Shown: positions 6,001-64,000 of the stretch, one piece after another
Numbering within the stretch: position 1 is the first letter of the stretch
Layout of the letters: the number at the start of each line of letters is the position of its first letter
Assembly (NCBI RefSeq): GCF_032116555.1
Contig: NZ_CP134949.1
Coordinates: 682,001-746,000, forward strand
DNA length: 64,000 nucleotides
DNA from: Halorarum halobium
GTDB lineage: Archaea; Halobacteriota; Halobacteria; Halobacteriales; Haloferacaceae
Reading direction: 5' to 3'
Program-made: the position numbers

Positions 6001-9000
6001 CAGGAACTTCAACTTCGATACATTCGAAGGTAATGGAGAAGACTCCCTACAGATGCATGCACCTATCGAGGAGTGGGAGGTCTTAAACGGTGAAAGTCGC
6101 TGGTCTGAGAGTCCTGGCGGCGATCAACGGTACCATCCCTTACTCTTCCATCAGGGATGGGCTGTAAGCGGTCAGGCATCAGACTTTGGGGAGGCAAAAG
6201 GCGTAGCTGCAGGAGCAATAAGAAGTATAGCAACTGGCCCTACCAGAGAAAGTCTTATAGAAGGTGAAGGAAGTAATTATTCGATGACGACCGGGATGAC
6301 TGAGCAGTTAAGTCGGACTTTGTTCGAGTACAATAGTAATGATGCTGAGTTTGAATATGTGTGGAATCTTGCAAGCGTAATTGAAACTGTAAACCGGAAG
6401 GATGGGAACTACATCTTCGATACCGCTGATCAGGATGATGATTACAGCGGCTTCTTTGATGGTGGCTTCGCAGTCTACGAAGTAGAAGACGACTCACTGG
6501 TCAACGAGGTCTGGCAAGACGAAGCAGGTCAGTACGACAACTTCGGCCAGGTCTATGACAAAGTCGAGGCTGCCTGAAGGGCCCGGTCACTGCGACAGTA
6601 TTGGACATTCAACCGGAAAATAATATTGCAGACACCTCTAATTCGATTACCGGACGTTATAGGACGAATAGTGGTCCTATAGTCGTCGGCCTCGGCACTC
6701 ATACAGTGTCGAAGTATCACCAAACGAATAAAAGGTTTTGAGCCGGTTATAGATACATGGCGGTGCGGAGGCGATGAATCATGACGGACAATGACGAGTA
6801 TGCGAAACTTTCTGAAGACCGGTGCGCGGTAAAGATCTACCCCGAGAAAGAGGTCGCGGAGCAGTGGAGTGACGAGGCAGACAACCAGGATATCTCCCTA
6901 TCCCGTTACCTGCAGAACCTGATCCACGAGGCACGGTCCTACCGACAACACGGACTGGTGCAGACTGACGGAAGCCAGAGGCGTGTTCAGGAACTGGAGG
7001 AAGAGGTCGAAGCTCTTCGCAACCGGTTGGAGCAGAAGGAAGCTGAATCTGCGGAAGCAGTCAGCTTTGACCCGGAGACGTTGAAGCGGGAAGTCCTGAC
7101 GGACCAGTACCAGTCCTTAGAGGAGGTTCTACAGACGATCGTAGAGTCCGGGATCCTGAATGATGTTTTGCTGGGGCCTGTGGAAAACCAGCTGTACTTC
7201 CTCGCGGCTCAAAACGAGGTACAGTACGAGCGTGGCTGGGGATGGAAACTCTCTGAAGAAGAATCCGGGGGTGCTGCATAGATGGCCTCTGGCAAGTACG
7301 ATGTCCTGCTGGACGCAGATGAGTGGGAGAGGAGGGTCTTCGAGAACAAGCACAAGTGCATCAATGACTGGCTTCGCAGCAAAGACTCTACGAACAAGTC
7401 GAGTTCACGTCGAACGCTGAACTCGTATAGCAGGACTGCGGCCAGGTTCTTCCACGAGTTCTTCCCGGAGGTGCATCCTTCCGATGTGACGGTTGGGGAC
7501 GTCGAGGAATACGTTCTGGACTTGAACGATAGGGATGTAGCGCAGAACACGAAGAGGAGGTACATCGAATCGTTGTCTGCGTTCTATACCTGGGCGATGA
7601 AGCGGCCACGGTTCGAAGATATCACAGGTAATCCTGCAGCTGTGGTGTTAGAGGAGATTCCGAAGAAGAAACGGCCTCGTCCGGAGACCGCGACATGGGA
7701 GAACGGCCGTGAGATTATCCGGAATATCCCTGATCCCAGGGACAAGGCTGCGGCTATCCTGATGGCGAAGACCGGTGCCCGTGTCCGTGAAGTCCTGACT
7801 GTGAAGGAAGAGGACTTGATGCTTGAAGACGGGTTCATACGGTTCACCGACAGGAAGGGCGGTCATGAAACCGTAAATCCGTTAGACGGTGAAAGCATTC
7901 AGGCCATCCGCCGGTTGCAAGCGGTCTCCTCGGATGACTCGGTGTACCTGTTCACAGGTATCCACGGAGGCAGGGTGAAACGAGAACGGATTAGACGTGA
8001 GATACGCCGAGCAGCAGTGAAAGCGGGAGTCATGGAGCATGAGGAGGAGGATCGGTGGCACCACAAGTTCACGCCGCACTACTACAGGACGATCTTCACG
8101 TCCTTAATGCGGAATAACGGGATGCCGGACCATTTCACCCGGTATCTCCGTGGCGACGGTGACCGGGAAGTCATGGATCTGTATACGAAGATTCCCAGGG
8201 ACCAAGTCCGGGACGAATACTTGGATCTCATCAAACCACTCAACCTGTACGCCAGGACTGACGGAGGTGAGAATCACAGCTGACGAAGCACGAGATCTCA
8301 GAATTTACGGATCAAACCGGGGAACTGGTAGGAGCTACACTTCTGCTTTCCCCGGAAGAGACTCGGGAGCTGAAGGAAGAAGGCACGGTAGAGATCGAGT
8401 TGGATCAGTGAAGCCCTGGTTTAGATGATTTTGGGGCCGGTGTGACCGTCGACGTGAAGCCGTCCGTCCTTGATTCCGAAGGTATGCTCACCTGGTTCAG
8501 AGATATCGTAAGGGAAGACGGCGAACCGGATTCTGTAAAGTTGGACATCCTCGGTGTCGCCGAAGATGTGTGTATCGAGGTCGGGCTTGATGTACGGGTT
8601 GCGGACCGGTAGAAGCCGGGCCTCTGCAGATCTTCTTGCTGCGTTGATGGTGAGGCTTTGGATCAGTATGAGATCCAGGTTCAGGTAGTCGCCGGGATTT
8701 TCTCTTAGTTCCTTCAGCGTCAGGTGGTAGTAGGTATCGTCGCCAGCGGCCAGGAAGCTGTGGGTTCCGACGACCGCTACGTTGTATTGAAGCGGGTCTT
8801 CTCTTGTCTCCAGTTGGCTGGATGCTCCTCGAAGGGTGCTGCGGATCTTGTTCTGGATCAGTTCCTGGCCGTAGAAATCTGGGCTGAACTGGATGCGTGC
8901 GGCGCTGCCGGGTGCAGATGGTAGACGGGTGACCTCTGCCCGCATGTCTTGAGGAGACTTGTAGAGGATGTCGTAGGCGGCATTGTGGGAACTGTCCTTG

Positions 9001-63000: not shown

Positions 63001-64000
63001 GAACGGCCAGTAGTACTCGGGGTCGTCGTCTATTCCCAATAGGTAGTCCTGGGCGTTTTCGGCGAGATCGATGCCGTAGACGATACGCCGTGATTCGTGC
63101 TTGAGCAGGTCGGTTTCCAGTCCGCAGTTCTTCAATCCTCGCCGGATCTTGCGGATGCGGGGGGAGACGCCTTCTCCAAATCTACCTCGGACGACTTTCC
63201 GACCTTCCTCAAATTGGGTGACTTGACTTAGTCGCTTCCTGGTCTTCGGCCCAAATTGGATTGAGCCGTATCCCTCAGTGTATCCGATCTGGTCGTACTC
63301 GATCCGGCCTCTCTCGGTCGGGACTCTCACCCGGTCATACTGGGCGCTTCCAATCTCGAATAGTCCGGTTGTGTCGAGGAAGACCAGCTCATTCGGCTTC
63401 GTCAACGCTTCTCCTTTCATCGAGCTGGCGATCTCGCTCTGGTTATCGCCGTATTTGTCCTGGTACATGTTGATGACCTTTGGACCGGTCAAGGCCATCG
63501 CCACGAGTTTGCCACCCAGGATACGATTGTAGGGCGGGATAGCACCGCAGACCATGATGTTCATCATACCGGCCCCGACGCGCTCCTTCTTGAGCTCTTT
63601 CAGAGCGGTTTTGATAGCCCGGCGTCCGGACTCGTTGTTCAATCCGGTGTGGATGAACTCCTCGTCGTCCTGGTCGCTGTGTTCTTGGAAGTACTTCCTG
63701 TCTCGCAGGAGTTTCTGAAGTGCGCGTGCCCGCTTCTTCCTGAACAGGGCTGTCTCGCTGCGGTCCTCCCAGGAGTCCATCTTCTCCGGGTTTTCGTCTT
63801 CCCCGTCTTCGATGGTCTGCTCGGCTTGCTGCTCGATTTCTTCCAGGATTTCGATAACCTGTTCATCAGGGTTAACGAAGCTTTCGTCGGACAGTTCCGG
63901 ATGCTCCTCGACGAAGTCGTCGTACCGGATGTTGGCGATCGCGTTCCTGATGGAGTCCACTAGAGCTTCACGTATATCGGAGCAGAACTGGCTGACCCGT

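Follow-up and report, generated by a model that had tools for sequence, protein, structure and literature searches.

The 3' end of the box C/D guide-RNA gene sR-tMet as the very likely attachment site of a haloarchaeal XerC/D-like integrase group and of a 97-kb fusexin (fsx1) element in Halorarum halobium

Integrated mobile elements carrying the fusexin gene fsx1 have been bounded by k-mer spectra and genome comparison (Moi et al. 2022, PMC9259645); the words "tRNA", "integrase" and "direct repeat" are absent from the main text of that study, and att sites and sR-tMet from nine supplements. A review of archaeal integration targets names tRNA genes, protein-coding genes and intergenic sites only (PMC8371274), and the available text of the ProBord study gives ncRNA as 13.5% of RNA targets (PMC13626063). 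The RNA sR-tMet (RF02163) is known as the guide for Cm34 of intron-containing pre-tRNA-Met (Joardar et al. 2011, via PMC4033218; Grosjean et al. 2008, PMC2584109), a role ascribed to haloarchaea (Joardar 2011, as cited in PMC4033218), and the available text of PMC4033218 and PMC2584109 does not describe it as an integration target. For Halfvol4 of Haloferax volcanii an att-like repeat is in print with its target gene unnamed (Di Cianni et al. 2025, PMC12091111, Table S1). According to the same source, the site is empty in seven related strains and holds other inserts in two (Tables S1-S2), and no circular Halfvol4 was found.

The window analysed here is a stretch of 64,000 nt of the Halorarum halobium genome (NZ_CP134949.1, positions 682,001 to 746,000; contig C1), which holds the left part of an fsx1 element (Table 1). 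It is very likely that the 3' end of sR-tMet is the attB of a haloarchaeal group of XerC/D-like integrases, and that the fsx1 element integrated there in tandem with an older mini-element.

Table 1. Features of the fsx1 element and its surroundings (window positions, or contig positions where marked C1)
Feature	Position	Strand	Basis or remark
Older group integrase, C-terminal remnant with frameshift	4828..5052	+	tblastn vs G272 mini-element integrase
Lipoprotein-like gene, putative cargo of the older mini-element	5186..6577	+	43% identity, full length, to the last gene of the G272 element
P' arm at the end of the older element; today it flanks the left repeat on its outer side	6658..6687	+
Left 16-bp repeat, displaced sR-tMet 3' fragment	6688..6703	+	Positions 1-13 are the core common to the whole integrase group
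Element start (P arm)	6704..6730	+	Weak dyad symmetry with the other element end about core position 10-11
Element body within the window	6704..64000	.	GC 53.7%; continues to C1:785636
CopG/ribbon-helix-helix-like small gene	6781..7281	+	Precedes integrase; homologue in 40/42 other group loci
Tyrosine integrase, XerC/D-like group	7282..8283	+	PF00589 and SAM-like domains
HerA/VirD4/VirB4-like ATPase	26742..28142	-	Weak: PF01935 E 7e-7, PF10412 E 6e-6
Second HerA/VirB4-like ATPase, start codon unsure	31609..33156	-	Weak: PF12846, PF01935
Orc1/Cdc6 replication initiator	43227..44534	+	TIGR02928 above cut-off
Defence cargo: Argonaute-associated nuclease gene and prokaryotic Argonaute	48271..51175	+	PADLOC Aga_REase_Archaea E 7e-80, pAgo_I E 3e-145
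Defence cargo: SspH-, SspG-, SspF-like and DruA-like genes	55104..64000, past window end	-	PADLOC E 2e-66, 8e-16, 5e-15, 8e-62
Two tRNA-like genes	C1:764082-764385	+	Beyond window
fsx1	C1:782213-784105	+	NCBIfam NF053506, 831.6 bits (cut-off 650)
Conserved element end (P' arm)	C1:785609-785636		Beyond window
Right repeat	C1:785637-785652		Beyond window
sR-tMet, intact gene	C1:785637-785708	-	Rfam RF02163, 80.5 bits (cut-off 50), model 1-72, single copy

The element lies between two exact copies of a 16-mer on the same strand, at C1:688688 (window 6688-6703) and C1:785637. With 0 or 1 mismatch allowed, the 3.68-Mb genome contains no further copy, and it contains no match to the reversed or complemented control patterns. 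The preliminary description had placed a 96.9-kb fsx1 element between these repeats, with a tyrosine recombinase beside the left one, fsx1 1.5 kb from the right one, and the right repeat forming the end of an intact sR-tMet. All of this agrees with the ORF and profile coordinates (the integrase ORF starts 579 bp from the left repeat) and with the full-length Rfam match, which shows the right repeat to be the 3' end of this box C/D guide gene; no tRNA was found at either element end. It had also reported a step in GC at both ends. The 96,933 bp between the repeats have a GC content of 53.7%, against 71.0% and 70.4% in the host flanks; however, the step coincides with the repeat on the right side only, since the outer 1.9 kb left of the left repeat is likewise low in GC (53.5%), and the left step was rejected as an element boundary because it marks the older remnant. 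In a congener (G381), right-flank homology does begin at 785637 and a methyltransferase homologue lies 4.5 kb off, as described before, but these 4.5 kb of other DNA separate the homologous flanks, so that the congener was rejected as a clean empty site. The right P' arm is identical in G268 and in two metagenome junctions, and near-identical in G007 and G306.

The low-GC 1.9 kb had been suspected of being an older remnant, and three sequence matches now speak for this. The stretch at 4828..5052 matches the G272 integrase with 38% identity over 76 aa (E 1.4e-11, tblastn, 600-bp subject) and also at the DNA level. The gene that follows has no Pfam, NCBIfam or PHROG match, its N-terminus suggests a lipoprotein, and its homologue is the cargo gene of the 3.8-kb mini-element of G272, which is ordered core, regulator, integrase, lipoprotein-like gene, core and sR-tMet. 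Finally, 30 nt near-identical to 6658..6687 abut sR-tMet itself in G003, and related ones do so in G262, G124, G278, G371 and G272. The outer 1.9 kb is thus an older, decayed element of the same site. In a 195-bp metagenome contig, positions 6533-6703 are joined straight to the continuation of sR-tMet, which represents the uninterrupted site.

The sR-tMet candidate passes the Rfam score and has the boxes, the terminal stem and the complementarity to pre-tRNA-Met expected of such an RNA. Its guide contains 12 nt complementary to the intron-containing tRNA-Met at C1:907339, and, counted upstream from box D, its fifth base is the one that pairs with C34, so the gene is predicted to encode the Cm34 guide of Halorarum halobium.

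The relation between integrase and site was followed in 401 genomes of the class. The group, delimited by score because a quick tree, in which the outgroup branches are long, supports the whole group as a clade at only 24, has an integrase in 42 of them. The 13-bp core occurs at up to 1 mismatch in 25 of the 42 group loci (about 4 kb each), in most of these about 590 bp from the integrase; the reversed pattern occurs in 1 of the 42, and none of 31 loci belonging to other tyrosine recombinases has the core. An exact core lies 1.9-15.4 kb away in 17 of the 18 remaining group places, which brings 42 of the 43 integrase copies within 16 kb of a core. All 20 core copies chosen as probable RNA-side ends proved to be sR-tMet (Rfam), and sR-tMet lies on the same contig within 110 kb in 35 of the 42 integrase genomes (in two of these its score, 47-48 bits, falls short of the cut-off). 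At 15 of the 18 junctions listed for the 20 loci examined, the side of the RNA gene that faces the element is poorer in GC by at least 9 points. The site itself is present in 376 of the 401 genomes, and among the matches listed, close same-strand core pairs occur in 20 of 83 genomes. These counts come from related genomes and are therefore not independent. The exceptions are a group integrase without a nearby core (G170:C3), an RNA gene far from the integrase by coordinates (G010, G364; 276 kb in G299) or on another contig (G306, G059), and one that was not found (G226). The claim that sR-tMet is a target across haloarchaeal families is thus upheld by the group loci, the core and the Rfam matches.

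That the repeat is a chance match, with foreign DNA merely collecting beside a conserved gene, deserves hardly any weight. The reversed 13-mer does match 0-4 times per genome in GC-rich genomes, and an extra exact 13-mer with no known link to the element lies at C1:3237533 in Halorarum halobium itself. However, position and strand are fixed relative to the integrase and the RNA gene in dozens of genomes, with the above controls, and both empty and filled alleles of the site are published for Haloferax (PMC12091111, as far as its available text and tables go); the controlled association and the empty-site strains refute a chance origin.

Outside the Halobacteria families, a 301-genome sample of the phylum gave no match to the integrase at E 1e-40, and no match in that sample fell between 1e-40 and 1e-84. 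Viral contigs held no relative of the integrase, phage records gave no match at E 1e-15, and plasmid records gave one, at 52.7% identity. Five matches of the 16-mer in viral contigs, none with an integrase, regulator or RNA context, were taken as chance. No group integrase was noticed beside a tRNA-Met gene, though no systematic search aimed at this was made.

At opposite ends of an element the arms match each other as inverted sequences about core position 10-10.5, with a pooled score of 136, where 1000 letter shuffles reached at most 122 and mismatched pairs reached 136 in 7 of 1000. Dyad runs of 6-10 nt were found in 10 of the 14 pairs tested and one of 4 nt in the Halorarum halobium element; a second, closer dyad, which the eye picks out about core position 15 in the sub-clade of this element, is absent from the pooled score. 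By eye, arm types track integrase sub-clades. This bears on the very unlikely alternative that a host recombinase (XerA at a dif-like site) or homologous recombination inserts the elements and the group integrase is a bystander. Such a reading could draw on the XerC/D-like annotation of the group proteins and on G256, where the host side of the RNA gene has a further tyrosine recombinase at a distance of 9 kb. Yet the tracking of arm types and the spacing of about 590 bp speak against it, and the integrase scores 152 bits with the XerA profile NF040815, below the cut-off of 220 for archaeal XerA. Repeats of 13-16 bp are too short for homologous recombination, which argues against that route here.

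The integration mechanism that we propose starts from a circular element with the 13-16-bp core between two arm sites, which its own integrase would recombine into sR-tMet, strand exchange most likely occurring at about core positions 8-13, the junction of D guide and box D. Because the element's copy would complete box D and provide the terminal stem, the RNA would stay whole, and the displaced host fragment would go to the far end. With the site rebuilt each time, later elements could re-insert beside the RNA gene and form tandem arrays. The order found in Halorarum halobium is remnant, fsx1 element, sR-tMet; the 97-kb element would have entered between the decayed mini-element and the RNA gene. 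The rebuilding of the 3' end, claimed earlier for the fsx1 element, is best seen elsewhere: in G114, G227, G246 and G091, which represent four genera and two families and share one integrase sub-clade (support 100), core position 2 is changed from G to A in the intact gene, preserving the stem as a G-U pair, and the distal copies retain G. The last bases of the RNA gene therefore travel with the element, which supplies the sR-tMet 3' end in this sub-clade; the two repeat copies of the 97-kb element are identical, so for that element we only infer the same.

The preliminary description had further treated the guide-RNA target, as opposed to a tRNA gene, as a trait of fusexin elements. This is too narrow, since the integrase group occurs in 42 of the 401 genomes and fsx1 in 7, and as a general rule it fails. 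Five of the seven fsx1 genomes are tied to sR-tMet and one is assigned to neither class; in G170, fsx1 (C1:90113) is bracketed by the tRNA-Arg(TCG) 3' end (64263-64275) and its exact duplicate on the same strand (171533-171545), which a tyrosine recombinase adjoins, and the sR-tMet core is 2.6 Mb away. This variety lends something to the view that the att site is real but the 97 kb is a composite, in which fsx1 came as a passenger or, earlier or later, as an element of its own, and which the left integrase does not move as a unit: in G268 fsx1 goes with a start arm that does not match and with an integrase of a different sub-clade, in G291 it lies 71 kb from the RNA gene with a different end arm, and in G170 it sits in tRNA-Arg, and the arm symmetry of the Halorarum halobium element is weak. 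Against it, no internal core was found between the repeats at up to 1 mismatch, and G007, from another family, keeps near-same start and end arms, a 96% identical integrase, fsx1 and a 94.8-kb span. We consider a composite origin unlikely. Around three of six metagenome fsx1 loci (L007, L011, L012), the 16-mer was not found at up to 2 mismatches within 5-10 kb downstream.

Integration as a single unit is the reading that we prefer, and the 97-kb fsx1 element, with its Orc1, transfer-type ATPases and defence genes, is integrative and probably self-replicating. The small gene upstream of the integrase has no Pfam match, its top Atlas match is "putative CopG family transcriptional regulator" (score 0.95), and it may be a regulator or directionality factor. 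The integrase residues R167, K192, H266, R269 and Y301 are each kept in 95% or more of the 44 rows of the group; the residue at the His/Trp position of the catalytic set is read as a glycine, G291. The ATPase matches fall under the family cut-offs for VirB4. For the tRNA-like genes, five fsx1 genomes gave matches of 20-25 nt but no homologue, and the candidate splice sites of these genes match the bulge-helix-bulge pattern in part only. Fsx1 is 49% identical to UniRef FSX1_UNCAX. The element may still be able to excise and might be transferred by cell fusion; no excised circle was seen among the entries listed for four metagenome runs (beside 124 further loose-end entries), nor among the five viral-contig matches, none of which has the integrase or the RNA adjoining. 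Among the sequencing runs listed, no RNA run contained the stretch and the best word share with it was 0.07; the metagenome contigs come from relatives.

Halfvol4, whose published repeat the preliminary description had not mentioned, is among the closest known systems, in a model organism. Its 14-nt repeat (PMC12091111, Table S1) equals the first 14 nt of the fsx1-element repeat, and the H. volcanii tyrosine integrases that came up in the protein search are 56-57% identical to the fsx1-element integrase. As far as the available texts describe it, Halfvol4 has three XerC/D-like integrases, T4SS genes, orc genes, defence cargo, low GC and internal repeat copies (PMC12091111; Hartman et al. 2010, PMC2841640); fsx1, present in the Halorarum halobium element, is not mentioned for it in the available text of PMC12091111. 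The deletion of Halfvol4 published there takes out the last 13 nt of the sR-tMet gene, and sR-tMet reads fall in that strain from 17,000-26,000 to 50-176, a 140-fold drop. The knockout thus appears to have lost sR-tMet unnoticed, which makes the deletion a confounder in the model organism and the strain a ready test of the role of Cm34 in tRNA-Met. A broader proposal, which we put forward as doubtful, is that the group took over sR-tMet, coming from an ancestor that targeted the tRNA-Met anticodon, that the crossover lets elements rewrite the RNA end and links islands to wobble methylation, and that part of the motility, shape, peroxide and CRISPR phenotype of provirus-free H. volcanii reflects the loss of sR-tMet and Cm34 rather than of the provirus. 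A slide from the tRNA-Met gene to its guide would be possible because the guide is an antisense copy of the anticodon arm: 12 nt, including the probable crossover segment, are common to both.

The sR-tMet gene is a major entry point for foreign DNA in Halobacteria, one that island finders seeded with tRNA genes would miss, and the 13-bp site, which comes with an integrase of its own, may serve as a landing pad in haloarchaeal genetics. Several fusexin elements now have base-exact ends, so that a single PCR can test for excision and for transfer driven by fusion. Compared with the elements of Moi et al. (PMC9259645, main text), the Halorarum halobium element clearly shares fsx1, the XerC/D recombinase, the size above 50 kb and the deviant composition, and its matches to the HerA/VirB4-type ATPases are weak. 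SNJ2-family and other tRNA-targeting archaeal elements (Wang et al. 2018, PMC5861418; Badel et al. 2021, PMC8371274) likewise have a 13-16-bp core at the 3' end of a stable RNA gene, which is rebuilt, together with small accessory genes and a fixed integrase-att distance per subgroup. However, the SNJ2-family att core lies just downstream of the integrase 3' end and in a tRNA gene, whereas here the core lies 579 bp upstream of the integrase and in a box C/D guide gene. Islands in tmRNA and ncRNA genes (Islander, PMC4383910; ProBord, PMC13626063) use RNA genes other than tRNA as attB, as here; the ProBord set is almost all bacterial, and "snoRNA" and "sRNA" are absent from its available text. 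As in such islands, the repeat is the 3' end of the target, the gene is intact at one element end, a catalytic integrase lies by one repeat, and uninterrupted sites exist, in the 195-bp metagenome contig and in the published Haloferax strains (PMC12091111, tables). The fsx1 element thus works like a tRNA- or tmRNA-type island, but its target is neither of these, and the box C/D guide-RNA gene constitutes a further class of target for archaeal integrases.

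The 16-bp direct repeat bounding the fsx1-carrying element of Halorarum halobium (genome G000) was found by pattern search of the three contigs at window 6688–6703 (C1:688688) and, on the same strand, at C1:785637, with no further copy at 0 or 1 mismatch in these contigs and no match for the reversed and complemented controls. The right copy makes up the 3′-terminal 16 nt of a full-length minus-strand sR-tMet gene (RF02163, 80.5 bits vs. a cut-off of 50), i.e., the box C/D guide RNA whose function is described in passages of PMC2584109 and PMC4033218 (further background in parts of PMC2841640 and PMC7911831). 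Its D guide shows 12-nt complementarity to the intron-containing tRNA-Met of H. halobium, spanning the exon–intron border and with C34 facing the fifth base before box D, and just 6 nt match in the other two CAU tRNAs. The GC content between the repeats (96,933 bp) is 53.7% vs. 70–71% in the flanks; the left repeat is followed by a small CopG-like gene and the tyrosine integrase, and fsx1 ends 1.5 kb from the right repeat. Thus, the preliminary description was borne out in its count of exactly two repeat copies, in placing the right one at the end of an intact sR-tMet gene and in delimiting a low-GC fsx1 element between them.

In this element, 104 ORFs were crudely called, of which 48 were given to Pfam, 19 to PADLOC and 17 to NCBIfam. 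The matches include Orc1/Cdc6, a GINS domain, two weak HerA/VirB4-type ATPases, an Argonaute pair, SspFGH-like genes and a DruA-like gene. Directly upstream of fsx1 lies a row of probable membrane or surface protein genes (L002:9311–13744 and neighbours, C1:772620–782219), one of which encodes 1477 aa with a glycine-rich domain. The element also carries two tandem tRNA-like genes (C1:764082–764257 and 764271–764385; L001:18082–18385) whose acceptor, D and T arms are normal but whose anticodon arms contain long inserts; in one trial, splicing the first gave a cloverleaf of 82 nt in which the anticodon stem is lengthened, and homologues were not found in five other fsx1 genomes.

Features of the element and its left flank located in the window
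Feature	Position	Strand	Basis or setting
Frameshifted integrase end	window 4828–5052		within the 1.9-kb block left of the left repeat
Argonaute-associated nuclease gene and prokaryotic Argonaute	window 48271–51175		PADLOC
Mixed defence locus, four genes (DruA-like, SspF-, SspG- and SspH/FtsK-like)	window 55104–64000, on to C1:746923	minus	PADLOC

Haloarchaeal XerC/D-like tyrosine integrases related by score to that of this element (E up to 1e-100) match at no fewer than 43 places in at least 42 of 401 Halobacteria genomes, both counts being lower bounds because five candidates were scored per genome. In a phylum sample of 301 genomes, a match at E ≤ 1e-40 was seen in eight, all from Halobacteria families, and no match fell between 1e-40 and 1e-84. 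Catalytic residues R167, K192, H266, R269 and Y301 are retained in at least 95% of 44 group rows; a quick tree gave the whole group a support of 24 with long outgroups, so that a single clade is not proven. The small gene upstream of the integrase was found at 40 of 42 other group loci and may, by analogy with SNJ2 Orf2/Orf3 as presented in passages of PMC5861418, encode an accessory factor.

The core, i.e., the first 13 bp of the repeat, occurs with up to 1 mismatch in 25 of 42 group loci of ~4 kb (reversed pattern, 1 of 42) and in 0 of 31 loci of other tyrosine recombinases (~3.5 kb each, six genomes). For 17 of the other 18 group places, an exact core lies 1.9–15.4 kb away on the same contig, the exception being G170:C3, where none is nearby. 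The whole 16-mer stands 593–605 bp before the integrase match in Natrinema altunense AJ2, Natronosalvus hydrolyticus AArc-curdl1 and Halorubrum sp. Boch-26, with the rest of the RNA gene missing there and with one mismatch in one of the three. Rfam identified sR-tMet at all 20 core copies selected by eye as RNA-side ends. Another 20 loci gave seven matches; none came from the ten loci chosen as distal (away from the intact gene) or internal copies, nor from L007, L012 and L069. A family search detected sR-tMet in 19 of 20 further genomes. On the same contig and within 110 kb of the integrase, it is present in 35 of the 42 integrase genomes (two of the 35 under the Rfam cut-off); among the remaining seven, it is 276 kb away (G299), on another contig (G306, G059), far by coordinates (G010, G364), not found (G226) or without a link (G170). 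The 13-mer, with one degenerate position, is present in 376/401 genomes, and by hand count 20 of 83 genomes among the first 150 of 713 matches hold at least two same-strand copies within 25 kb; we read these close pairs, many just 0.9–4 kb apart, as remnants. Two other layouts were observed. In G097, G033 and G206 (L023, L028, L035), the usual order is mirrored, with the integrase adjacent to the intact sR-tMet gene and pointing away from it, and on G114:C17 cores in opposite orientation (L144:4168 and 5906) flank regulator and integrase genes 7 kb from sR-tMet, possibly as an invertible cassette.

In all, 32 distal copies were compared with the RNA gene; these were selected for no more than 1 mismatch to the 13-mer, hence conservation of positions 1–13 is by construction, and past the 13-mer identity falls abruptly (23/32, 11/32 and 15/32 at positions 14–16). 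Where a single contig holds both ends of an element (14 elements), the inner flanks form inverted repeats whose axis falls at core position 10–10.5, with a score of 136 vs. at most 122 in 1000 letter shuffles; mismatched pairs reach 136 in 7 of 1000. The inverted runs are 6–10 nt in 10 of the 14, 4 nt in the H. halobium element and in G007, and shorter in G256 and G268. From this axis, we infer a 6–7-bp exchange segment at about positions 8–13, which would comprise the final guide bases together with the first base of box D; as at tRNA-type sites, it would mark the upstream boundary of the identity block. With exchange there, the element would contribute positions 1–7, i.e., the terminal stem and what remains of box D. 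At the sequence level, one sub-clade shows this supply directly, as the preliminary description had proposed: in G114, G227, G246 and G091 (four genera, two families; integrases grouped with support 100 in the quick tree), position 2 is A in the intact gene and the usual G in the distal copy, which changes a G–C stem pair to G–U. The element-side 28 nt are (near-)identical in fsx1 elements from hosts of three families and at two metagenome junctions, whereas the sR-tMet interior varies by host. Separately, 12 nt including the putative crossover segment are common to the tRNA-Met gene (C1:907368–907379) and the sR-tMet antisense strand (C1:785644–785655), and the former may be a secondary site or an ancestral one. 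In G172, sR-tMet-like copies at C1:3333865 and 3335300 (51.6 and 43.9 bits), 1.4 kb apart, may reflect an on-site duplication of the entire RNA gene.

The suspicion that the 1.9 kb of low-GC DNA left of the left repeat is an older remnant was confirmed: this block is an older passenger. Besides the integrase end, it holds a gene sharing 43% identity with the gene that closes a 3.8-kb element in G272; the order there is core, regulator, integrase, this homologue, core, sR-tMet. The last 30 nt of the block almost equal the DNA abutting sR-tMet in G003, and a single 195-bp soil-metagenome contig from a relative (~86% identity) matches window 6533–6703 and continues into sR-tMet sequence. The fsx1 element thus entered between the older element's end and the RNA gene. 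Each insertion would rebuild the site, so that the next element would enter beside the RNA gene, as expected for the fsx1 element here.

Among seven of 401 genomes with fsx1, five are tied to sR-tMet: G000, G007 (repeat pair 94.8 kb), G291 (103.6 kb; fsx1 71 kb from the RNA gene), G268 (41.7 kb; fsx1 4.9 kb away) and G306 (fsx1 4.7 kb away; draft contigs). However, in G170 the fsx1 element sits at tRNA-Arg(TCG), with 13-bp repeat copies 107 kb apart and a recombinase at the far copy; the earlier statement that fusexin elements use the guide-RNA gene rather than a tRNA gene thus holds for these five and fails for G170. In G185, GC is low over the fetched 54 of 56.5 kb of the fsx1 contig, and sR-tMet is on another contig; a tRNA-Tyr(GTA) gene lies inside that fsx1 contig (L081:3257–3328, G185:C4), so tRNA genes may be a more general cargo of fsx1 elements. 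Three of six metagenome fsx1 loci have their end in sR-tMet (L010, and L008 with L009, which share a junction), and no core was found in the retrieved flank of the other three. An fsx1-type element end touches sR-tMet in G012 (L055), G022 (L043), G059 (L052) and G256 (L057), where fsx1 was not found, which suggests related elements or remnants without the fusogen.

The same site bears on Halfvol4 of H. volcanii. According to passages of PMC12091111, the first 14 nt of the repeat flank Halfvol4 with two internal copies, the site is empty in seven strains and holds other inserts in two, and Halfvol4 has no adjacent tRNA gene and gave no circle. Supplementary Table 4 (RNA-seq) of that paper lists HVO_2293_T (2163553–2163625, minus, 73 nt) as “H/ACA guide RNA (snoRNA)”. 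This RNA shares its 3′ end with the right copy of the repeat (Halfvol4 end 2163566) and with the C/D guide model, and RF02163 scored over the cut-off in H. volcanii in a control search; we therefore infer that HVO_2293_T is sR-tMet despite the label. The reported Halfvol4 deletion (2111359–2163565) thus removes its last 13 nt, i.e., half the D guide, box D and stem. Reads in the same table fall from 17072, 21635 and 25799 to 82, 50 and 176 (log2FC −7.1, adjusted P 1e-122), a drop to be read with four regions deleted, a control other than the direct parent and a possible contribution from read assignment to the cut gene in mind. A term search of the paper's text found no discussion of this loss. 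The provirus-free strain is likely a hidden guide-RNA knockout.

In the openly accessible literature searched (titles, abstract starts and passages), a C/D guide gene is not named as an attachment site. The relevant passages of PMC8371274 give tRNA, protein-coding and intergenic targets for archaea, those of PMC13626063 count ncRNA targets in a nearly all-bacterial set, and PMC9259645 gives no att site in its main-text passages and nine term-searched supplements. New here are the naming of sR-tMet as a target and its class-wide link to a single integrase group, the evidence for an element-supplied RNA end, the exact ends of fusexin elements and the likely guide-RNA knockout in a model strain. 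By gene content, the H. halobium element is a member of the Fsx1 elements; its integrase is not XerA, and its layout is not SNJ2-like. Judged from sequence, it would work like the tRNA-type integrative elements, but its target is not a tRNA gene.
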